From assembly GCA_010093605.1 (NCBI GenBank), contig MU004198.1, positions 64,726 to 128,725 on the forward strand: DNA of 64,000 nt, in the 5' to 3' direction. The position numbers and the translations under genes were made by a program. Shown here one piece after another: positions 6,530 to 63,652 of this stretch (positions within the stretch are counted from its first letter, which is position 1; every line of letters begins with the position of its first letter). The notes beneath the pieces were generated by a model. It did no database searches. It saw nothing but the letters and a program-made list of their open reading frames with translations, and was not told the DNA's origin. The stretch is from Lophium mytilinum. Taxonomy: Eukaryota.

Positions 6530-7156
6530 TACTTAGACCTTGGACTGGTCGCCTGTGAGGTTCAGAGACCGGACAGATCCGGTTGATGTTCCTCCCTAGT
6601 GATTCCAATTGGCAATATCTTTGGGCGCTGAGAGAGAGGGTGAATTGGTGGAGTTGTTCGTAGAAGAGCAGTTTTCGATCTCTCAATCATCTTTCCTTGC
6701 GGGAGCGAAACACCTGTATGTTTACTTTTCTATCTTATTGACTAATGGAGTAGCTCGTGTGCCACTTCCCAATCTCGGGCATCTATTGAACGGGTAACTT
6801 CAGACGACAGTGACTGATAAACTACGCGTTCTCTAATAAGACCGAGAGCAAATACTACATTTTCCTGCTGCTGTACTCGAATAGTGGTCGGACCCATTTG
6901 AAGCTGTCATGGAATATGGTGGGGTCTGTGAGCCCATGGACAGCAGCAAGAAGCGGTCTCGTCTCAATAGCTGCCGGCGAAAGACAAAAAAACAGTCGTG
7001 AAACCTACCAAAAGCTAGGGCTAATTTAACTACCTACTGCGCATCTTTTCGGCGTACTTTGAGGGTATTCGAGGGCTTGTGGCGCGCCGTGCTGAATTGG
7101 ATGGCACTTTGCTGTGGACAAATTAGGCCTAGCGCGCGTGACAACATGGGTTTGTT

Positions 7157-32716: not shown

Positions 32717-34765
32717 TCAGTAGATACTGAATACCTCTCCTGCGTCTCCGCTATCTCTTCTTTTGGCTCCCTCTCCTTTCATCAGCCCATGCACGTAGCA
32801 CTCGCCTAAAAATCTGTATCCCTTTTCCGCGGGGCGAATAATATACGGCACTTTCCCGCCGAATAGGACTGCAATCAGGTCGCCCTCCTCTATCGCAGTG
32901 GGGCCAACACCCATCAGTCCATCGTCCATGACGAAAAACCGTCTCGCATACCCAGCATCAACATACTGGCTCTTGAACTGCTTCTCAAACTTCGAGATAC
33001 CTAAGAACGGCGCCAGCACATCCGCAGCCTGGTTCGCTATTCCCTCGTCATCATGCCAAATCGCCGCATCCCCACGAATCATCATCTTCAGCTGCTCATA
33101 CTGTTCTGCCATCTTCCCGTCGAGGGATGCCACCCAATTATCCCGCCACTTCCTCGCCCCATCCGCGTAAAGCTGCTCGTCGTACGTCGCATCTCCTTCT
33201 AGCAAATCCTCATGTACCAGCGCCGCAGTCTCCGCCAACGCAAGCCTATGCCGCTGACACGTCTCTGGCACAGGTGGAGGATTGGGGTTCAGTATCTGCC
33301 CATACCGGAACCACAGCATCATGGCCTGGTTGGTCGCGAAGTCAGCGTAGATGCTGTCTCTCCACTTCATGTCTTCCGGCGCTGCTCCCTTCCCTTGGCG
33401 GTTTACAGAGTCGAACAACACCCTCGCGCCGCACAGCGTCGTCCATAGCAGCGCTTTGATGAGCGGCTCCCTTTCGTACGGCGTCTTCGCATACTGTTGA
33501 GCAAGCTTCCACGCATCCCTGAACTGATCCAGCACGTGGTCCTCGTAAACGGGCTGATTCTCCGGGTCGAATGCTACGCTGCTGATGTATTTCACGACGC
33601 CACACCTCATTCCCTCAATCTTCAGCACCAGCTCCTCTCCTGCCACCCCATCGTCCGCCGCAAGCTTTAGCTCCCTTCCCCCTGCGGCGTCGAACCCCCT
33701 CGCTTCCGCTAGGATTGAAACCGGCGTGACACCGGATGCCTCCCAATCCGGCACCCAGCTCGGCCACTCCCCTACCTCCTCATCCCCCTCAAACGCAAAT
33801 GCGTTCGCGAGGACCTCCAACCCCCCCTCCTTCCTCACCACCGCCCTTGCCGCTTCTGCAAACACCACCTCCACAGCCTTCCCATAATCCACCCCTACAC
33901 ATCCCGTCTCCTCCTCCCTGAGCAGCCCAAGAAGCGCAAACACCCTATCCCGCCTCTCCGTCGCCTCCCTCCCCGCCCCTAGACGCAGTAGCCCATGCAA
34001 CCCCCTCTCCTTCAAAATCAGCGGATACGCGCGCAACAACGCATCCCGCCGCACCGGCGAGTCAGGCATGTTATGCAACCCTACGCTCTCCTTACACCAC
34101 TCCAACGCCCGTGCCAGCTCCTCCCAGTCAAAAACAGTGGTGTCCCACAGGATCAGCCGCGAGGACGCGAGGATGCATTCCTGCAAGATCCACATGCGGG
34201 AGAAGTACGGCAGCGCTAGTAGTGTGTTAAAAGCGGCCCAGTCTTCGCCATCTCTCTCCGGTAGACCTGCGGCGACGAGGTTGGCGGTGGTGGGCACGAC
34301 GTCCTCGGGCCATATCTTCCGCTCGGGTTCTCCGAGTAATTGGACCATGCGGAGAGCACGCGGTGCGGTGTGGGAGGGGTCGGGACCCAGCCACATGATT
34401 ACGCGGGAGGCGTGGGTGTAGATTGTGCCCATGAGCTGGACTTGGGAGCTGCGTTCGGAGATGTCGGTTTGGTTGATGCAGAGTTGGTCGATCCATAGGA
34501 CGCGGGGGTCGGCGCTGCGAAGGCGGTGGAGGACGTCGTGGAGGTTTTTGGTGATTGGGACGCTTTGTTCGTTGAGGTGGATGTGGTAGATTGAGGAAGG
34601 GGGGCCCCAGACGTAGGAGAGGGCTTCGTAGGGTAGGCATGAAGTGGAAGGGGGAAGAGGGTGGGTTGACAGGGTAGCTGAGATATGGGAGGTTTGGGTA
34701 GTCAAGGGATGGAGTATTAGGAGGCGGAAAGCGTTAGGGGGGAGAGGTTGGTACGGAGTAGACAT
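32717..34765 (-). CDS. HET-domain (HET-6-like) protein, 682 aa
   Basis: YEALSYVWG, LWIDQLCINQ, QVQLMGTIY, YFSRMWILQE, PSWVPDW and GECYVHGLMKGE. Confidence 0.93.
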   Translation of the reverse strand: MSTPYQPLPPNAFRLLILHPLTTQTSHISATLSTHPLPPSTSCLPYEALSYVWGPPSSIYHIHLNEQSVPITKNLHDVLHRLRSADPRVLWIDQLCINQTDISERSSQVQLMGTIYTHASRVIMWLGPDPSHTAPRALRMVQLLGEPERKIWPEDVVPTTANLVAAGLPERDGEDWAAFNTLLALPYFSRMWILQECILASSRLILWDTTVFDWEELARALEWCKESVGLHNMPDSPVRRDALLRAYPLILKERGLHGLLRLGAGREATERRDRVFALLGLLREEETGCVGVDYGKAVEVVFAEAARAVVRKEGGLEVLANAFAFEGDEEVGEWPSWVPDWEASGVTPVSILAEARGFDAAGGRELKLAADDGVAGEELVLKIEGMRCGVVKYISSVAFDPENQPVYEDHVLDQFRDAWKLAQQYAKTPYEREPLIKALLWTTLCGARVLFDSVNRQGKGAAPEDMKWRDSIYADFATNQAMMLWFRYGQILNPNPPPVPETCQRHRLALAETAALVHEDLLEGDATYDEQLYADGARKWRDNWVASLDGKMAEQYEQLKMMIRGDAAIWHDDEGIANQAADVLAPFLGISKFEKQFKSQYVDAGYARRFFVMDDGLMGVGPTAIEEGDLIAVLFGGKVPYIIRPAEKGYRFLGECYVHGLMKGEGAKRRDSGDAGEVFSIY

Positions 34766-35558
34766 TCTGGGAGTGGTGTCTTGTATGTTGGCAAGATAAG
34801 ATGGATTGAAAAGATGTGTGAAGAGAGAAAAATTCAGCTATGTTGTTAAGAGGCATTGAGGTTTGATATAAAATGCCAATAGCAGAAGCATGATGACGTC
34901 GGACTGCAGGAACGGCGCCTAGATGGCTGAGAGCTAGGCGGGAGTAGTTGCAGCCCTGAAGACACCTTTGAGCAGGAGATGTATTGATCTCGACTCAACG
35001 TGTCTTTGTTTCTAGGCACAATAGTGTCAACTTTAGCATATTACAAACACCCTCGAAGCGCCCTTGGACCCTTAAGATATAGACAATATCCTTATCCCCA
35101 TCGAGGTTATAGACCGAGGCGAGATTCACGTGCCCCGCGTAGAAAACCCAAATCGGAATTCCAATAAGCGTCCTATTGCTCTTGACGCGAGGATTTGAAG
35201 GGGTGTGTAATGGGAGCCAGCGAGCACGCCTTGGGATTCAGGGGGCTTGTCAGGCTTGTCGCTTTTGGTTTAGCATGAAGCTGGGACCGCACCTCTCCAG
35301 AACTCTCACCTCACCAGACTCACAGACATGAACGCCAACGGTCGTCATTCCGGAGTGCCCAAGGATGCTTTGAGTATATCATTAGATTGTACACCAGTGC
35401 CCAATATCGGCCGTGCCACTCTTGCCTGCTTGATATCACTTCCGAGGTGGCCTCATCAGACTCTGTTTTCACAAAGCCAGCAAACACTGGCCTGAGTCTT
35501 ATCTCAGCGACCTTCACACTGCATCCAATCATTGCAAGGTACTAGAATACATCAATCA

Positions 35559-42792: not shown

Positions 42793-43635
42793 TTATCCCT
42801 CAACAGGGCGACGCTGGCGTCTTTCGCATCCTAAGTCCGTGCGACAGGTCGGGCAAAGATTGCTATTATCCTGCGCACTGTTCAGCCAATGCGAAAGGCA
42901 GTTGAAATGAAAGTAATGATCGCAAACCGTTCGAATCGGACGCTCTTCACCTTCCTCCGCTCCCGCCAGCGAAAGCTGACAGATGACGCAGGACATATGG
43001 GGTGGCAACGGGCACGAGATCGCACGAGTGAAGCCAGAGATATCTATCTTCTCACCCACCGCTTCGAGGGTCACAGGTGATAGGTCTTCGGGTGGACCAT
43101 CGCCATCACGATGCCCGCGCTCGAATTCTACGACATCGTTATCGTCCCACACTTCCATGGTCCCTATCCCCTCCCCCTCGGTGAACGGTAGCGTCTCTAC
43201 TGCTGCGATCTTCAGCGCCGCAAGCACGATGCGCTCAACGGCCCTATAACCATCCTCTCGCTTCCAACCCTCCAGGAGCGGATCACCGTCACCGGCATCC
43301 CCCGTGAGGACACCAATGGTCAAGCACATATCTTCGGGAGAAAGGTTAAAGCAGGCTTCTTCAGAGATCGTGCCATCATTCAGCCGCACATCTAAGAAAT
43401 TCCGCGCCTCTGCCTCGACGTTGAAGACGTTCATTCCCCGCGAGAAGCGATATATGATGATGTAAGCTAACAGCTCGGCCGTGAAGAGAAGGTGTCCTGC
43501 TTCGTAAGGATCAGTCCATGCTCCGTCGAGTGTGAGCCTTACGCCTTCGAACTCGAGGTCGATGTCTGCGGGTGTGAGTCCAAACTGCTTCATGAGCTTG
43601 GCGAGCTCCTCTGGAGCGGTCGATTCGAAAACCAT
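42793..43635 (-). CDS. RING-H2 finger protein (280 aa)
   Basis: CVIC...CDHYFHFNC...CPTCR at the C-terminus. Confidence 0.85.
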   Translation of the reverse strand: MVFESTAPEELAKLMKQFGLTPADIDLEFEGVRLTLDGAWTDPYEAGHLLFTAELLAYIIIYRFSRGMNVFNVEAEARNFLDVRLNDGTISEEACFNLSPEDMCLTIGVLTGDAGDGDPLLEGWKREDGYRAVERIVLAALKIAAVETLPFTEGEGIGTMEVWDDNDVVEFERGHRDGDGPPEDLSPVTLEAVGEKIDISGFTRAISCPLPPHMSCVICQLSLAGAEEGEERPIRTVCDHYFHFNCLSHWLNSAQDNSNLCPTCRTDLGCERRQRRPVEG

Positions 43636-44693
43636 GCTGAAGAGTAGGGGTTTCGTGTGGAATGTTACTGTCTGTGTGTCGAAAGGTCTGTTTATGAGAA
43701 GGTGCGCTTGTGAGTTTGAAGGCCTCTTTCCACGTTCCGATAGATGCGACGCTGATAGATTTTATAGGTCATTCTTACTATTGTATTTGTCTATTGCACA
43801 GACTATTGTAAAGATAGAATTGAGATTAAACCCGTGGTAATGGAATGGAAAGGTCTAAGATGCCTTAAATGTTGTTGACAAACTAAACTATTTTCTCCTA
43901 CTCCTACGCGTTGTCACTGAATTTGCTCGCCAAGTCGGTGCAGAATGATAACATTGTAAGCACATGATCCTCACCCATTGATTATACTCCAATTAGGGAT
44001 AGCGTCACGGGCTCAATTATGCCTCAGGCAACAAAAACAACCTCGCGATAGCTTTCCACCCGGAACACAGCCACAAGCTAGCCCATGGCCCCTCCCTACC
44101 TTGCCAGAACTCTGGAAGCAGTCGCTTACCACCGTTGGAGGTGCTCCGGCGCATCTTGACAGTTTTAGGAGATGTATAGTCCTTGAGACTTTGAATTAGA
44201 CATGTCTTAACCGCTGTCAGTTGGCCGTCCTGCCGCTGTTGGTGGTGCTTCAGCTCATCATCACGGACCGAAACAAGATGTGAAATACGGCATGCCCAAA
44301 CTTACATCCTGGTACTGTTGGTGAATTGATACCCTACGATGAGAATGAACGACGATATCTTAACAATCACACTGTCTTCTACGCTGTGTCCTTGATGAAT
44401 GCACAGCTTTCACACTTTATCAGCGCGTAAGTCCTCACTTGTGCTAAGGTTACGGTTACCTTCATGCTAGAAGTGTGACCTACCCTCACATAATCGAGAT
44501 TCAGCAATATTTCTGTCACGTCATAAGGGAACAAAGGGTGGTACAAGAATTCAATTTCGTTATTGTGTTTGAGGTAGTTAGAGCTTCCACACTTTGCATG
44601 GAAAACCCGTTTCTAGACTACCTCATCGGCAGAGCTGTCTAACGGCAGTCAGACATACATACGAGGAGGCCGCAAGCATCAAACAAGCTGAGC

Positions 44694-45851
44694 TTAGTTG
44701 TCTTCATCTCTAGAGTCATATGATTCTTCAAGAGCCTCCAATGCAGCCCGCACGCCATCTGCATGAGCCTCCAAATCAGCCGGCGAGGCAGTCAGTAGAA
44801 AGGTTGTGAATCGTGACATGGAATGCTGCGTCTCTTCCACAAGCTGTCGGGCTTCAGCCATGGTATCGACTGCACCGACATTTAGGACCTCTGTGGCGAG
44901 TAGCTCGTCGGGGGGCTCAGCGGCGACGAGACGCAGCGTTCCCCGACACATAGGGCAGGTGGCTTGCCCTTGTGGGAACCCAGAGAGCCAGTTCTGAAGG
45001 CAATCGCCGCCAAAGATATGTTCGCATCCGGTTCGAACAGGATAATGCTCTGTCTCTTCAGTCAGATCTTCGCGGCAAATGCTGCATTCGGGGTCCTCTT
45101 CAGGGATTTCGCATCGAACGGCAACATCCAGAACCGAATGTTGGCCGTTTTCTTCACCTTGGTTCGCGCCTGGGTGCCATCCACCGCCGCCGTCGTTGAA
45201 TGCCGTAGCGATAGCTGCATTGAGTGCATTGAACGCATCATCGTCGACGACTAGCCCGCTCCATGTTGCCCGTCCTTCAATGAATGGCCACCTCACGTAA
45301 GTGGAAATGATACGTGTGATATTGACGTCAGACCAGCCATCCTGGAGACCTAGATATGGCAGAACCTCATTCCAAATTTCTCGAGAGAGACGTAGCCTCA
45401 TGTAGTCAAGGAGTGCCGGTAGGTTCTCTTCATCCCACCTACCTCCTTGGAACTCAAGAATCTCGCGTGCCCAGGCTATCCAGCTTCGAGCAGTTCGCAG
45501 CAAGGGTTCTAGTTCCTCTGCGCTTGGCATGTCTTCGCCGTTGTTGGGATGGTTTGCCATGAATACCTCGCGATAATAGTGGGCATCTTTGGGGTCCTCG
45601 TTGGTCAGACGATGGTAGACCATTGGAGCGAGAAATTCATCGATCGCAGCTAATCGACGACCTTGAAGTCCTCGGGTTGTATCCGCTGTGATGTAACGCT
45701 CCAGGGCTCGGGCGTCGACACGAAGAATTGGATTATCGATTCCAATCGCTCCCCTAGGCCATGGAGAGTATGGGATGTCGTGTTCAGAGGACCAGAGTGG
45801 TGGCATTCTGTCGGTGTTGTGATTTGTGTGGATGTGGTGAAGAAAAGGCAC
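44694..45851 (-). CDS. RING finger protein (385 aa), variant with Gly at ligand 5
   Basis: CSIC...CEHIFGGDC...CPMCR. Confidence 0.85.
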   Translation of the reverse strand: MPFLHHIHTNHNTDRMPPLWSSEHDIPYSPWPRGAIGIDNPILRVDARALERYITADTTRGLQGRRLAAIDEFLAPMVYHRLTNEDPKDAHYYREVFMANHPNNGEDMPSAEELEPLLRTARSWIAWAREILEFQGGRWDEENLPALLDYMRLRLSREIWNEVLPYLGLQDGWSDVNITRIISTYVRWPFIEGRATWSGLVVDDDAFNALNAAIATAFNDGGGGWHPGANQGEENGQHSVLDVAVRCEIPEEDPECSICREDLTEETEHYPVRTGCEHIFGGDCLQNWLSGFPQGQATCPMCRGTLRLVAAEPPDELLATEVLNVGAVDTMAEARQLVEETQHSMSRFTTFLLTASPADLEAHADGVRAALEALEESYDSRDEDN

Positions 45852-46631
45852 CAGTTACGGTGGTTCGGAGCTCCTTTAGTACTCCTAAGAGGATACAGCT
45901 GTTGATTATCATAGTGAAAGCTTCACCATTGTGGAACCACCTAGTGGCCAGAAGAAACTTTGCAATCACATCCAGGGTGGTGATTTCAGAACATTGTGTC
46001 GCGATATGGTGAGAAACTCAACTAGCACATAGAATTGGTATGTTCGGAAACGTGTACATGCACAACGCAGAGACAGTGTCGAAGCTTTGCGACTGACAAT
46101 AGAAAACTTTGTGTTTCTGCAAAGAAAAACGTGCTAGAAAATGTTCCGCCAGAAGTCGAACTTAGAGTGGCAATCTCGCGACTCCGCGAACTGATTGGAC
46201 CGAAGAAGGGCAACGTGAGGATGTTGTTTATAGACAATAGCGAACGATCATACGCACTTGATGTCATATGTAAGCCAATTGAACTTGAACCTGACAATAC
46301 GGCTGGAGTCGTACCTTCTGTGATTTCCAATAAAGCGCCCCACCGAGGCGTGAAAAGCTACATCTCTTGACTCGATATACTTCAAAGTGAAACCCAAAAC
46401 AGTATTCCGGATGTTGTTGCAGCTCTAGCCCCGCCCGACACCATCAGCCAGGCGTCAAGAACTCCCACTTTCGCTTTGTGATTCACAACGCCCAGATTTG
46501 ACATGTGATGTTGACTGTTGATCCAGTTCGGCGGGCCCTCCAACTGCGTCACCGACCACCAAAAGCTCATTTTCCTGTTTATTCGATTCACATCTTTCGT
46601 AACCCAACTAGCATTCCAAAGTCCAAGCAAC

Positions 46632-59196: not shown

Positions 59197-60277
59197 ATGG
59201 ATTTTTCGAACAGTACGCTTCCTAATGCCGTCGCGAAAGACCCTCAAAGTTCAGCATCTCACGATCCAGCTCCTCAAGATCCAGTTCCTCAAGATCAGGC
59301 TCTTCACCAGCAGCCTCCTCACGATCAAGCTCTTCAAGAGCAGCCTCCTCGTAATCAACCCTTTCAGCATCATCCAGCCGTTGGGAGTCCCCTTCCACGA
59401 GAACCAGCTCGTACAAACCGGTTCTCCCTAGTCAACGTTTCAGGACGAGCGAAAGCGTTCATAGGGTAAGTCCCGCTGGCCTGCTATATCAATCAAGCTA
59501 ACGGAAAATAGAAACTTCTATGGAAACATTATCAACAACCCGAGGAGGAAGTCAAGGAGAGAGAGGATCGCTGTGTCTATCGGCATTGCGACTCTTGTGA
59601 TCATGATCTTAGCGGCCGTACTTGTTCCATTATTTGTTCATCTGAGTCAACCATTCCACAAGCCGTCGGCAGAGCAGCAATCGATATCAACCGTGTCATT
59701 ATGGTATACAGCCACCTTTCACGATACTCCTGTGCCAGGATCACCTGGATCTGCCTATGTCTCGGCCTCTCTACTTTCTACCTCCTCGTCCGATTCAAGT
59801 CGGAAAGACGTCGAGCCTTCTAGTGATACAAGCAGGATCACCATCCTCAGATCACCTGCGTTCGTTTTGGCTCAGACTACATCAACTCCTGGATCACAAA
59901 CCCCCCCACCTGATGTGGTCACGATTCAGCCGTCAACGAAGGAAACAGTATTCGCCGCTGCAGTAACCTCGTTCCCAGCTTCTCAGACCAGCTCCGACTC
60001 TCCACGAACAACGAGTATTTTGTTCGGGGCTACTGGGCCTGTCAAAACCTATCTCTGGGATGGAACAACGACGTTTTGCACTCGCTGGTCCGGTTTGGGC
60101 TGTCCCGGTGATCAATGCAACAGCAACACCTGTCTCGACCCGTTGCCATGTTGGGAAGGGCGCTGCTGCACCAGCGGCTGTGTTGAGGGTTGGGAATGCA
60201 CTGGGACATGTGTCTCTGCCATGTCATGCGTCACTACAAATAACGATAGTACGGGGGTATGCAGATATACTGCTTAA
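59197..60277 (+). CDS. Predicted type II single-pass membrane protein (344 aa): cytoplasmic amyloid-like motif, TM helix, Ser/Thr stalk and 12-Cys C-terminal domain
   Basis: Intron 59466-59511 (GTAAGT..GCTAAC..TAG) joins ORFs 59194 and 59573 in frame; RRKSRRER precedes the hydrophobic IAVSIGIATLVIMILAAVLVPLFV. Confidence 0.8.
59260..59379 (+). repeat. Degenerate 15-nt coding tandem repeat (about 8 pentapeptide units)
   Basis: HDPAP QDPVP QDQAL HQQPP HDQAL QEQPP RNQPF QHHPA. Confidence 0.7.
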
Positions 60278-61397
60278 ATGGACGACATGAAGGCGGATCG
60301 CCTCTCAGACGGCGGAACAACGAGATGACGCAGTGGAGACGTACCGATCATCAAGTCGTATGAGAAACGAGATGAGGTTTCATTCTCACGATGCGGCAAG
60401 AGGCTAGTAATGGGGACTGTGCCGTTAAACGACATAGCCTGGATGTACGATTGTTTGTATGGATTGTAAGGAATGAATGTTTTCGTGTTCATTCATGCGA
60501 ATCAACGTCGAACTGTCAGCTAACGCGCATTGAAATTTGAGCCTCATCCTGTGTGGGTGTGGGCAAGCATGAGCTAAATCGGGCGTTGTGCATGCATGGA
60601 AGCCTTCACCGGTTGCATGCATCTTCAGCCACTCGCGAAATCAAACCGCCCAATCGGTACGTCGCGCATCCGATTGATCGGCCATCTGCAGTGGGCTGCC
60701 TCAAACCCCGAGCATCCAATCTAAGAGATTCGGCTGAGTATGGGCGGTGAAAAAACCGTTCAGCGTTTTGAAATCACTGGACATGGTCGCGCTTCGAACC
60801 CACATTCCAAGCATCTTCCTGCAACAAGCGCCTGTGGGTCGAACGTTTTCAGGCAACTCGTCGACGTGGCACTGATGCCTTACGGCAACTCATTTGCCTT
60901 TTTCCATGGCAATTCGCCTCTTGACACCAGCGATCCTCGTCCATACCCAATTGACGCCTTCAATAAGCACGGCTACTCCTTCCTAAGAAAATGCCTGGAC
61001 GTAGAAGGTCCGCGCCGGCAGATTCGCAAGGCTTGTCGTAATTTCGCGCCTCGAGGTATGCCTCAGGAGGCGGCATGTTGATACACAGCCGAGCAGACTG
61101 AGCACTGAGCAGACATAAAGTACTCTATGCTCACTCGCAGTGATCAGTTACGCAGAGCGCGCAACCTCTCGCTCACAAATACTGAAAATCTTTTGTTCGA
61201 CTTGATGGATTGTTACACTGCACGAGCTCGTTTCCTCCGGTCAGCCTTACCACTCGGTATCCAATTCGGCGTCCCGAAGCGGAGTGACAACGCACTGTGG
61301 CCGCTTGGAATCACCTATATGCGCGTGAACGCCCTCGGAACCCTTGGTCCTTCAATCGGCCAGCCCTGGTCTTATCATTGGAGGCAACCGATCCAAG

Positions 61398-62591
61398 ATG
61401 GCTGGAATCGAGGTTCTCGGGGTGATCGCAAGCGTAGGGCAAATAATCCATTACGGCGGGGTTATTGTCATCGGGCTACATGACCTGTATCAGCAAGCCC
61501 AACATGCACCAGAACGTTACGCCCAACTGGCCAATCAGGTCGAGCAACTGGTCCATACAGCGCAGCTCATAGCTGAGACGGAAGCCTTAAAGACCGATCT
61601 CGTCCGTCGACACCTTGATACTCTTCTGGACACCGTTAAGAGCCTCGATCACACCATCAAACGGGCACTAAAAGACACGTCAAAAAGGCCTGGAAAAAGA
61701 TATTGGAGGGCTATTTGGTCCAGTCACAGAGAGGAGAAAATATCGAAAGGATTCTCAAGACTCGAAGAGAACAAAAGCTCCCTCGTACTCTGCATACTCG
61801 GAACGTACGGCGAATTTATGATGCCAGCTGCGCAGGTGACAGATGGATCAGCCAAACTCATTGATGAGTCCCAGGACCCGAAGCGCAACGGGGCAAACTC
61901 ACGAACGAGGCGAGCACCAAGAGACAAACCTGAACGATTAAGAGGAGGAGCTCTGAGAGGCAAATCTTCTCCGCCATCTGAAAAAGTATGTGCATCCTGA
62001 TCGCCAGCTCAGTCATCCTACTTACACATAACATTGTCTACTCAAGTGGTCCCAGATCAGTCATTACAGAACGAAATCAACGATGAAAGCTCCGACCAGG
62101 AACCAATGTCCAGAGCGTCCACAGCCGTAGACATGGATAGTCCAATCGCACAAAGCAGACGCCCAACCCAAGAATTGTTTCCACACCATGAAACGCCTAG
62201 TGAGACGAAACAATACCCAGATCTGCACTCATCAGGCTCGCAACTCCCAGATAAGGCAATAGCCCTTTATGGGCAGGAGCCGTTTCTACCTCATCAAGGT
62301 GCCAACATCCGTGGCCGCCAGTATGCCAAACCCTTCAAGGACTTGTCATCAAGACAACCCACCCAACTCCCCAACGGCCAAGGATCTTTCAACTTTAGCG
62401 GAGATTACTTTGATGAAGTCACTGCTAGCGGCAATGCTAAGCAATGGGCTGGACGATTCGGATCGGCCACTATGCCACAAGCATCCCAGTCAACCGGCAA
62501 TTACTATGGAAAGATCAATTCTACTGAAAGTTCGAGGACATACCTTGGCCATTTTAGTGATGAGCAATGTAAAGATATTTTCAACCAATAA
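61398..62591 (+). CDS. SesA/HeLo-like N-terminal domain protein with a C-terminal two-repeat HET-s-like amyloid domain
   Basis: MAGIEVLGVIASVGQII...RYWRAIWSSHREEKI..RLEENKSSLVLCI; donor GTATGT at 61986 with an in-frame acceptor at 62060 or 62069 (uncertain); C-terminal repeats DYFDEVTASGNAKQWAGRF and NYYGKINSTESSRTYLGHF. Confidence 0.72.
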
Positions 62592-63652
62592 GTCTTATTG
62601 GCCAACCCTCCCGAATCTCATCACGGTGAGACGACGTCGAATGCCTATCACTACGCTATGGCTATTATACCATAGCCAGAGGCTGAAGTCTTTCAAGTTC
62701 CCAGAAAGATGCCACGCCGTCTCTAGAGCTAGGATCTAACTCCGACTTGGATTCTCATGATCTCATCTGGTATCGATATCGACTCGACAAACTCGCCACC
62801 TTATATCTGCGATCGACTCATCACCACGATCGATTTACCAGACCGCGACTCCACGAAGGCATACCTCATATACCCCAGCTCAGCTCCCTCTTACGCCTGA
62901 CCTTCTCACTCACATAATCTACACGCAAACGAAAAGCCCTTCGAACTAGAACATTGGGGTTCGATAGCTGGCTCACTTGACCCGCGTATCAACGATCTCG
63001 ACTTTTCGATCTCGCCTGATAATCTACTCTGCGATACACCCTACTAGTTTCTTCTAGTTCTTTCCTTTCTACTACACCTGTACGCAGATCATATTCCACG
63101 CAACCTTCACGAGTTTACGAGAATTTTCTCATAATCTCAGGGGCTTTCCTGGAGTGAAAACGTTTCATTTTAAGGTGGTAAAAGGGAACGTCCAGAACAC
63201 CTTCCCTCCCATGCACAGATCTTTGTTTATTCTATCTTCTCTTCAAAATATTTCTACAGTTGATAACAAGACTAAGACAGCCCATACCCCTCTCATGCAT
63301 CCTAACCTCACTGCTTCTTGAGGTCTCCCGATATGTTTCTAGGACTCCACACAAAGGCGACAGCATCCTTGTCTGTGTAAATCCGTTGACTACCATGCGA
63401 GGTCTTCTAATATACTCTGAAACCCGGGGCCACAACTCCAAGTAATGTATATATTTTAAGTCTCCGAAGCTGACTTGTGGGCTGCCCTTTTCATTGCACC
63501 GCCGGTGTCGATGAGCTGGCCGTATTGAGCCCAAGCTTGTCGAGCAGCCGCAATGTGACATGCACACAGGCAACGGAACCACCTACATACCGGTTCGAAA
63601 GTGAGTTTCTTATGAAGCGATCCACCCCACACATCAGCGATATGTTCTTTGC

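Follow-up and report, generated by a model that had tools for sequence, protein, structure and literature searches.

In the fungal amyloid-signalling systems of the literature that we searched, the upstream partner is an intracellular NOD-like receptor (NLR) whose ligand is unknown. In the NWD2/HET-S system of Podospora anserina, the partners are encoded by adjacent genes, the effector joining an N-terminal helical domain of pore-forming type to a C-terminal pair of 21-residue pseudo-repeats and the receptor bearing one N-terminal copy of the motif (PMC4518210). We found two genes of the same layout, gene 1 and gene 2, in a 64,000-nucleotide stretch of Lophium mytilinum (assembly GCA_010093605.1, contig MU004198.1, positions 64,726 to 128,725 of the forward strand; hereafter the window, in whose numbering positions are given), but here the single-motif partner is a 344-aa membrane protein without NACHT, WD or other NLR domain, and the effector domain appears to be SesA/HeLo-like, not HeLo, with no match to PF11558. 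The FNT1/HELLF pair of P. anserina likewise has a HeLo-like rather than a HeLo domain and highly diverged repeats, and HELLF retains the HET-s fold at 17% identity (PMC7889193); Gln at position 16, found in the first Lophium repeat and in most relatives, is the hallmark of HRAM5 (PMC4518210). FNT1, however, is an NLR. The Bell/BASS-NLR pairs of filamentous bacteria also place a helical membrane-targeting domain with a C-terminal motif beside a receptor with an N-terminal motif (PMC7889193), but they are prokaryotic, use other motifs, and their published partners are NLRs. A membrane protein in the NLR's place would be a plausible variant of fungal amyloid signalling, and we put the probability that the Lophium pair is such a module, operating by the full mechanism set out below, at about 45%.

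Joining 59197-59465 to 59512-60277 yields a 344-aa gene 1 protein that reads NRFSLVNVSGRAKAFIG up to the junction and NFYGNIINNPRRKSRRER from there to the transmembrane (TM) helix. Its order is a Gln/Pro-rich tail, the motif (NRFSLVNVSGRAKAFIG followed by NF), the patch RRKSRRER, one hydrophobic helix, a Ser/Thr stalk and a 12-Cys domain, and composition counts confirmed the succession of parts that a preliminary description of this DNA had listed after the motif. The motif, which we call r0, is present in one copy at residues 74-92 of 344. All 12 Cys residues lie past the TM segment and none ahead of it, whereas Lys/Arg residues number 6 in the 15 positions on the N-terminal side of the TM core versus 1 on the C-terminal side. 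A single TM segment, a stretch of about 30% Ser/Thr and 12 Cys past the TM segment are shared by all five gene 1 relatives, which include proteins of Mytilinidion resinicola (68% identity), a Logan contig, Cenococcum geophilum and Lepidopterella palustris, and the equivalent hydrophobic segment is present in every orthologue (P0002, P0003, P0004 and P0005). The positive-inside signal is clear in three of the five gene 1 proteins compared (6/1, 6/0 and 4/0) and neutral in the other two, so that the cytosolic N-terminus assumed earlier is borne out by the counts in part of the family and left without such a signal in the remainder. These counts, a C-terminus rich in disulphides and the absence of any signal peptide make an N-in orientation likely, and gene 1 probably encodes a type II membrane protein with a cytosolic N-terminus.

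As had been proposed, gene 1 lacks NACHT and NB-ARC: Pfam scans of gene 1 and its orthologues were blank for these and for WD, ANK, TPR or other NLR domains, and whole gene 1 orthologues gave no HET-s, HeLo or receptor-type Pfam domain at E<=10. For the four exon pieces, Pfam returned nothing beyond noise. The 12-Cys domain had no match in Pfam, PDB sequences or the ESM Atlas, and its AlphaFold2 model was poor (predicted local distance difference test, pLDDT, 51.4 with 10 sequences). Gene 1 may be a candidate ligand-binding receptor and may serve as a surface sensor replacing the usual intracellular immune receptor.

The integrity of r0 depends on an intron within the codon of Gly19, and this intron proved to be removed, as predicted, both in the NCBI model P0001, which lacks 59466-59511, and in a 5395-nt contig of the public sequencing run X1, which skips the same 46 nt with GT..AG ends (59464 joined to 59511). 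No run was recorded outright as RNA and the RNA nature of X1 is a guess of the run listing, but X1 fits a transcriptome because the intron excision is precise and neighbouring contigs differ 30-fold in depth. The L. mytilinum protein KAF2489621.1 is 100% identical to gene 1 exon 2 and has 322 aa, not 344, because the NCBI model takes out a second small intron (59213-59278), which touches the low-complexity tail alone. At this second site, X1 contigs end at 59212 and resume at 59270, just past an AG at 59268-59269, which would fit an alternative acceptor at 59269 (57-nt intron) versus the NCBI acceptor at 59278.

The tails of the gene 1 orthologues are divergent, and the motif is their conserved block (RFSLVNVSGRAKAFIGNF, RFSLINVSEQARAFIGNF, RVGALQNSGNARTMVGNF), r0 standing out by its conservation in the tails of P0002 and P0005. 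In Cenococcum the block reads KKFSFINVGERSNVVNG followed by D. At a Cenococcum-like metagenome locus, L001, the intron 3733-3784 matches the Lophium intron 59466-59511 in position and phase, after the second base of the Gly19 codon, and since the same intron splits the Gly19 codon, the Cenococcum block is orthologous to Lophium r0. The published rules for HET-s-related amyloid motifs (HRAMs) call for Gly19, hydrophobic residues at positions 5, 8, 10, 16 and 18, Arg/Lys at 15 and an aromatic tail (PMC4518210). In HRAM numbering, r0 has N3, F5, V8, V10, K15, A16, I18, G19, N20 and F21, and so fits these rules.

All of the sequence statements made about the locus earlier (the gene models, one motif in gene 1 against two in gene 2, identity at 8 of 19 positions and a spacing of 32 aa) hold. 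The eight identities between r0 and the first gene 2 repeat, R1, are F, V, S, G, A, K, G and F. In Smith-Waterman alignments with 2000 shuffles, Lophium r0 scored 37 against its own gene 2 repeats versus a shuffle mean of 24.6 (standard deviation 4.0; p ~0.012), while r0 of Mytilinidion and Lepidopterella scored 44 (p ~0.0005) and 34 (p ~0.012), respectively, against the Lophium repeats. We also derived a pattern from the gene 2 repeats of Lophium and Lepidopterella, four in all (hydrophobic at 5 and 8, Lys/Arg at 15, hydrophobic at 18, Gly19 and F21). In the 97,800-residue six-frame translation of the window it matched the two gene 2 repeats only, shuffled sequences averaging 0.75 matches, and it matched the spliced gene 1 motif and two of the three other gene 1 orthologues tested (P0002 and P0005, not P0004). 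A hidden Markov model (HMM) built with the Lophium repeats scored r0 of Mytilinidion at 7.2 bits and of Lepidopterella at 6.2 bits, versus a background maximum of 4.8. Since the gene 1 motif is interrupted by the intron, HMM scanning of the six-frame translation fails to pick it up.

Several comparisons weigh against a relationship between the motifs of the two genes. With a family repeat HMM of 47 repeat segments from 30 relatives, r0 scored at background (Lophium -1.2, Mytilinidion -0.1 and Lepidopterella 2.5 bits, random six-frame matches reaching about 3.7-6.4 bits), and a four-segment subfamily HMM made without Lophium also placed the gene 1 motifs at background. Lophium r0 itself reached 2.1 bits with the HMM including the Lophium repeats, and the other HMMs lifted none of the motifs. 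Lepidopterella r0 is not significantly like its own repeats (p 0.32) and matches those of Lophium better, no gene 1 motif is significantly like the Lepidopterella repeats (p 0.14-0.58), and Cenococcum r0 aligns locally with neither the Lophium nor the Lepidopterella repeats at a significant score. These scores and the unlike Lepidopterella pair are what one would expect if the likeness were coincidental, the gene 1 motif having another role, such as sorting or partner binding, and gene 2 being an ordinary orphan HRAM effector, its NLR lost or encoded at another locus; 57 of 155 HRAM effectors indeed have no adjacent NLR (PMC4518210). Yet r0 obeys the HRAM positional rules, is N-terminal like the r0 motifs of known receptors and satisfies a pattern for which only about 0.75 chance matches are expected per 97,800 residues, and we regard coincidence, on which the synteny, co-variation and Botryosphaeria data below also bear, as unlikely. 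Motif comparison thus points to a resemblance between r0 and the gene 2 repeats that is real but modest. Such weak similarity leaves templating possible without proving it, because HELLF keeps the HRAM fold at 17% identity, and cross-seeding of HRAM folds depends on a few side chains (PMC7889193).

The two gene 2 repeats, R1 and R2, begin at residues 99 and 131 of the open reading frame (ORF) 62106-62588, 32 aa apart with a loop of about 11, and agree with published HRAM pseudo-repeats (about 21 residues, Gly19, the hydrophobic pattern, Arg/Lys at 15 and a loop of 6-18). At positions 16 and 10, R1 has Q and A and R2 has T and S, and both Gly19 residues are invariant in an alignment of the Lophium downstream ORF with the tails of relatives (19 sequences). 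This ORF shares 37% identity over 67 ungapped residues (E 5e-12) with the tail of Lepidopterella P0007, a 367-aa protein that contains the N-terminal domain and the repeats together. Among 52 relatives of 240-599 aa, 23 had an internal C-terminal tandem repeat score of at least 27 and five more had repeats recognizable by eye, the usual form in the family being Y..h......S.Q.NG[DN], with Q at position 16. The HET-s_218-289 profile PF11558 found no match at E<=10 in the gene 2 C-terminal ORF, P0007, P0008 or P0014, which counts against a HET-s-type reading of the repeats; of the 155 published HRAM proteins, 38 match this profile (PMC4518210). Variants of the tail were also observed: P0069, P0076, P0085, P0105 and P0106 have three C-terminal pseudo-repeats of the ..S.Q.NG[DN].G type with a spacing of about 24 residues, and P0097 has two repeats and then about 100 strongly hydrophobic residues, which may stem from a further fused neighbour or from a read-through model.

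A phmmer search with gene 2 exon 1 against 1.84 billion representative sequences returned 273 relatives, of which 81 reached E<=1e-10 and 5 reached E<=1e-30, and in every case the match lay in an N-terminal domain some 140 residues long. A word-index search for longer relatives of this domain came back empty but passed over P0007 too, so that its blank carries no weight. Of the 20 relatives whose sequences were retrieved, two, P0113 (1024 aa) and P0138 (1072 aa), are NLRs in which the gene 2 domain starts at residue 1 and is followed by NPHP3_N/NACHT and ankyrin repeats, and a domain shared with NLR N-termini is a signature of fungal NLR effector domains. SesA (PF17107) gave sub-threshold matches in 9 of 30 relatives (best 25.3 bits versus a gathering cut-off of 26.3) and PF17111 weak, sub-threshold matches in 3 of 30. 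UniRef names the Mytilinidion orthologue 'Fungal N-terminal domain-containing protein' and a Glonium relative 'NACHT-NTPase and P-loop NTPases N-terminal domain-containing protein', and the names for P0006 and P0037 agree with a SesA-type assignment. Telling against this assignment, the Lophium gene 2 protein itself has no above-threshold HeLo or SesA match and no Pfam match at E<=1. The scans suggested earlier thus found SesA below threshold in relatives, and no HET-s prion-forming domain, HeLo or SesA match for the Lophium protein, and the claim of a HeLo/HELL/Ses effector gains some support from the family, whose domain also heads NLRs, but not from any Pfam match of the Lophium protein. 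Family comparisons therefore partly support gene 2 as a SesA/HeLo-like member.

For the N-terminal domain, AlphaFold2 (90 sequences) predicted with confidence (pLDDT 86.1) a bundle of helices spanning residues 2-34, 38-60, 67-96 and 109-159. Foldseek found no match to this model in the PDB at E<=0.001. In a VIA-align fold comparison covering 48,161 chains, the best natural matches were potato Rx-CC (Z 11.5), MLKL (10.7 and 10.4), NRG1.1 CC-R (9.6), AtMLKL3 (9.3) and MLA13 (9.3), but these rank among designed and generic bundles, and Z values of 9-11.5 lie under the caution line for helical proteins, so that the resemblance of the model to Rx-CC and MLKL is at most suggestive. HET-S HeLo was not among the 50 matches listed, which is no evidence of its absence. 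Sequence-profile searches of the PDB with the 12-Cys and the N-terminal domain brought nothing relevant, matches to actinin and spectrin being put down to helical composition.

Gene 2 consists of two ORFs in the same frame parted by one TGA (61998-62000). The first (61398-62000, 200 aa) equals the deposited model P0167, and the second, of 196 codons, is intact and open from the base after the TGA. Gene 2 as a single protein therefore needs the removal of an intron, 61986-62060 or 61986-62069. In the L001 orthologue a canonical 52-nt phase-0 intron (GTGAGT..TACTAAC..CAG, 6670-6721) occupies the same place as in Lophium, and the gene 2 orthologue of a second Cenococcum-like metagenome locus, L002, also has a canonical intron at the homologous site; because the two exons lie in different frames in L001 and L002, splicing is obligatory there, and TGA read-through was rejected as a general mechanism on the same ground of differing frames. 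For the Botryosphaeria relative, long contigs give an ORF, P0174, ending in '...DPKV' and a stop, whereas a 1393-nt contig and the NCBI model (P0032 and P0173) read '...DPK' and then 'LALIG...' on into the repeats. Four of five truncated ORFs (Lophium, P0006, P0010 and P0174, not P0168) stop 1-4 codons past a GTN codon, the pattern expected when the reading frame runs into an intron.

These data have to be set against the view that the module has decayed, Lophium gene 2 now being a 200-aa N-terminal domain protein alone and the repeat ORF an untranslated relic. The X1 contig, the sole one of transcript type, is unspliced through 61986-62069, so that the splicing expected for this locus was seen in X1 at the gene 1 intron but not at that of gene 2, which is retained. 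The deposited models end at the same place in Lophium (P0167, 200 aa) and Mytilinidion (P0006, 197 aa), a branch site of CTRAC consensus is missing from the intron, and the AG at 62046, the first beyond the likely branch region, is not in frame. Against decay, the repeat ORF stays open for 196 codons with repeats, tail and 37% gap-free identity to Lepidopterella all kept, relatives carry a canonical intron at the same place, obligatorily spliced in L001 and L002 and removed in the Botryosphaeria contig, and four of five truncated ORFs stop where an intron would stop them. We consider decay very unlikely and a spliced full-length gene 2 product in Lophium probable. Intron retention in X1 may, speculatively, be regulatory and limit the amount of full-length effector made. 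In both Lophium and Mytilinidion the repeat exon is probably absent from the deposited models, and through such systematic misannotation effectors of this kind would escape proteome-based surveys. A single X1 contig runs unbroken through spliced gene 1, the 1.1-kb intergenic region, gene 2 with its intron retained and about 2 kb past 62700; its continuity across 59270-62700 could be due to read-through, overlapping untranslated regions or antisense RNA.

The pair is adjacent and co-oriented in four lineages, namely Lophium (gap of 1.1 kb), Mytilinidion (KAF2809103 for gene 2 and KAF2809104 for gene 1, consecutive accessions on a single contig), Lepidopterella (likewise, OCK82325 and OCK82326) and the two Cenococcum-like loci, where about 1.26 kb separate gene 1 from the gene 2 N-terminal domain (185 bits with its HMM), which follows it downstream on the same strand. 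Adjacency is thus conserved, as had been anticipated, though inside a wider syntenic block, the upstream L51/S25 gene and the next gene being syntenic between L001 and the window. Since the upstream flank is syntenic too, adjacency could be plain synteny and is weak evidence alone, a point in favour of the coincidence explanation.

A further arrangement would have three components, an NLR elsewhere in the genome or beyond the window being the true sensor and gene 1 a second target or a membrane dock for the amyloid. Gene 1 would then have a role comparable to that of the extra motif-bearing effectors of the sigma and PP clusters, and multi-effector clusters are known, with SesA/SesB and PNP_UDP partners (PMC9815663). 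The window extends just 1.4 kb downstream of gene 2, and an NLR with the same motif may lie elsewhere in these genomes, beyond the window and flanks scanned, which would weaken the case for gene 1 as the receptor. No NACHT/NB-ARC domain was present, however, in the 43 window ORFs scanned (of 83 ORFs of at least 130 aa), nor any NLR in the L001 and L002 sequence flanking the pair (3.6-5.9 kb on the upstream and 4.5-5.5 kb on the downstream side), where NmrA-like and L51/S25 genes and a domain-free ORF of 882 aa are located. Receptors also have a single N-terminal motif, as gene 1 does, whereas in pore-forming effectors the motif is double and C-terminal, and we judge a three-component system to be distinctly unlikely.

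To compare motifs with their partners we used an anchored 23-column comparison (BLOSUM sum, best of R1/R2). Lophium r0 scored 30 with its own partner, 5 with Lepidopterella, 21 with the Cenococcum-like and 10 with the Botryosphaeria repeats; Cenococcum r0 scored 23 with its own versus 9, 6 and 18 elsewhere; and Botryosphaeria r0 scored 45 with its own versus 6, -8 and 22 elsewhere. The own partner is therefore the top match of r0 in three of four lineages, which argues against coincidence, the exception being Lepidopterella, whose r0 scored 13 with its own repeats and 22 with those of Lophium; the co-variation looked for since the preliminary description is accordingly seen in three lineages and contradicted in this one. 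For the three gene 1 lineages, the true pairing had the highest summed score of the six possible (permutation by hand), and lineage-specific residues are shared between r0 and R1, namely SG.AK in Lophium and F..IN.G..S in Cenococcum. Because so few lineages are available, the co-variation is suggestive only of motifs evolving in concert with their partners.

In Botryosphaeria dothidea and relatives, a 153-aa ORF, P0177, sits between two effectors of the gene 2 family. P0177 has one N-terminal motif, QNEARGQANQLNGNIYD, which scores 18.3-18.5 bits with the family repeat HMM (independent E-value ~1e-7) with or without Botryosphaeria repeats in the model, and it ends in a hydrophobic segment, ALAIMGAPIIVAMVFGWAARR, and has no P-loop; the ESM Atlas held no usable match to it. 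It may thus represent a second, unrelated, putative membrane-anchored single-motif protein beside gene 2-family effectors, and such a neighbour, with a highly significant motif, is not what coincidence at the Lophium locus would predict. P0173, an NCBI model found in the 90% cluster of the Botryosphaeria family member, is a chimera of three genes (effector A, part of the small downstream gene and the repeat exon of a second effector, an orthologue of Diplodia P0036); in NCBI model KAF4313316.1, pieces of P0177 and of the two effectors are fused. P0173 was therefore rejected as a TM protein with its own double repeat, its last part being the linker and repeat exon of the P0036-orthologous effector.

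The features of the pair are collected in Table 1.

Table 1. Positions of gene 1, gene 2 and their parts in the window
Feature	Position	Strand	Support or remark
Gene 1, predicted single-pass membrane protein	59197..60277	+	344 aa after removal of intron 59466-59511 alone
Small in-frame N-terminal intron of gene 1, 66 nt	59213..59278	+	P0001 (NCBI model)
Single HRAM-like motif r0, NRFSLVNVSGRAKAFIGNF	59416..59518	+	Intron falls inside the Gly19 codon
Gene 1 intron, 46 nt, GTAAGT..GCTAAC..AG, phase 2 in the Gly19 codon	59466..59511	+	Skipped in the X1 contig and P0001
Basic juxtamembrane patch RRKSRRER	59543..59566	+	Lys/Arg count around the TM segment
Predicted TM helix, IAVSIGIATLVIMILAAVLVPLFV	59567..59638	+	Kyte-Doolittle mean 2.83 over 19 residues
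Ser/Thr-rich stalk, 30% Ser+Thr	59639..60076	+	Composition past the TM segment
C-terminal 12-Cys domain	60077..60274	+	44 invariant positions across 10 sequences
Gene 2, putative SesA/HeLo-like effector with C-terminal double repeat	61398..62591	+	372 or 369 aa if the intron is removed
N-terminal helical-bundle domain, hydrophobic first helix MAGIEVLGVIASVGQII...	61398..61877	+	273 relatives; AlphaFold2 pLDDT 86
Predicted phase-0 gene 2 intron, GTATGT...CAG, holding the TGA	61986..62060	+	Alternative in-frame acceptor 62069
Repeat R1, DYFDEVTASGNAKQWAGRF	62403..62459	+	G116 invariant in 19 sequences
Repeat R2, NYYGKINSTESSRTYLGHF	62499..62555	+	12.5 bits with the family repeat HMM; G148 invariant
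C-terminal tail SDEQCKDIFNQ	62556..62588	+	Aligns with the aromatic 'FF' tail of relatives

Other genes lie near the pair. In the window, a 706-aa ORF (32720-34837, minus strand) with a HET domain (PF06985, E 2.6e-34), a gene of non-self or cell-death type, is about 25 kb away, and two neighbouring RING-H2 finger ORFs (42796-43761 and 44697-45854, both minus strand) are apparent paralogues with the finger near residues 257-307. Downstream of the pair, a Gln/Pro/Asn-rich ORF without Pfam domain adjoins the NmrA-like gene in L001 (10093-12738, minus strand, 882 aa) and L002 (12596-14122, minus strand).

Taken as an amyloid-signalling module with a membrane protein in the NLR's place, the pair would work as follows. 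Gene 2 would be a HET-S/HELLF-like executioner composed of a helical bundle, a disordered linker and two 21-residue HRAM-like pseudo-repeats, which would stack into a two-rung beta-solenoid. The cytosolic tail of gene 1 would present its single r0 about 16 residues from the membrane, while a Ser/Thr stalk of O-glycosylation type and a conserved, disulphide-rich head would face the exterior. An event at the head, be it ligand, cell-wall damage or contact, would cluster the gene 1 protein, and on the cytosolic side of the membrane the clustered r0 copies would assemble into an amyloid nucleus, which would template the gene 2 repeats and so release the N-terminal helix of the effector into the adjacent membrane. 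Topology, clustering, templating and cell death are thus steps that we infer; the observations of the preliminary description were confirmed and its interpretation is partly supported.

A non-NLR upstream partner was not found in the parts available of PMC9815663, PMC13506858 and PMC7889193 within the fungal amyloid literature searched, and PMC12261475 lacks the terms 'transmembrane', 'membrane' and 'non-NLR'. This agrees with the earlier statement that the architecture is undescribed in fungi, as far as the literature searched goes, although the supplementary lists of PMC4518210 may already hold these loci. By analogy, the nearest functional counterpart is non-fungal, the Drosophila PGRP-LC/LE to Imd pathway, in which a pattern-recognition receptor with a short amyloid motif (PGRP-LC or PGRP-LE) nucleates Imd amyloid (PMC13506858). 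The likeness is one of analogy, not homology, since motif type and ectodomain differ and the output is NF-kB rather than a presumed pore-forming effector, and with no PGRP or other Pfam domain in gene 1 it is purely architectural. PGRP-LC is a type II membrane protein with its motif in the cytosolic N-terminal tail. Kleino et al. (2017) reportedly studied amyloid signalling through cryptic RHIMs in this PGRP-LC/LE-Imd pathway. The Wsc and Mid2 cell-wall sensors of fungi resemble gene 1 in having a Cys-rich head, a Ser/Thr stalk, one TM segment and a short cytosolic tail, but gene 1 is inverted in orientation, with a C-terminal head, no signal peptide and an amyloid-type motif in place of a Rom2-binding region, and Pfam found no WSC domain in it.

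If the proposed mechanism is true, fungal regulated cell death would be linked to cell-surface sensing, through a receptor whose input could be controlled externally, for instance with ligands, wall stress or forced clustering, and amyloid templating would be a portable output module untied from NOD-like oligomerization. More tentatively than for the Lophium pair itself, we suggest that fungal cell death under amyloid control may have a second general class of inputs, made up of membrane-anchored nucleators that are not NLRs. A single cytosolic HRAM-type motif would then occur, beside SesA/HeLo-like double-repeat effectors, in no fewer than two unrelated kinds of membrane protein, one being the type II Cys-rich family of Lophium, Mytilinidion, Lepidopterella and Cenococcum and the other the tail-anchor-like Botryosphaeria protein of about 150 aa, which could account for some of the HRAM effectors without an adjacent NLR, and surface or membrane events would be wired straight to a pore-forming executioner, as a fungal counterpart of PGRP-LC signalling to Imd.

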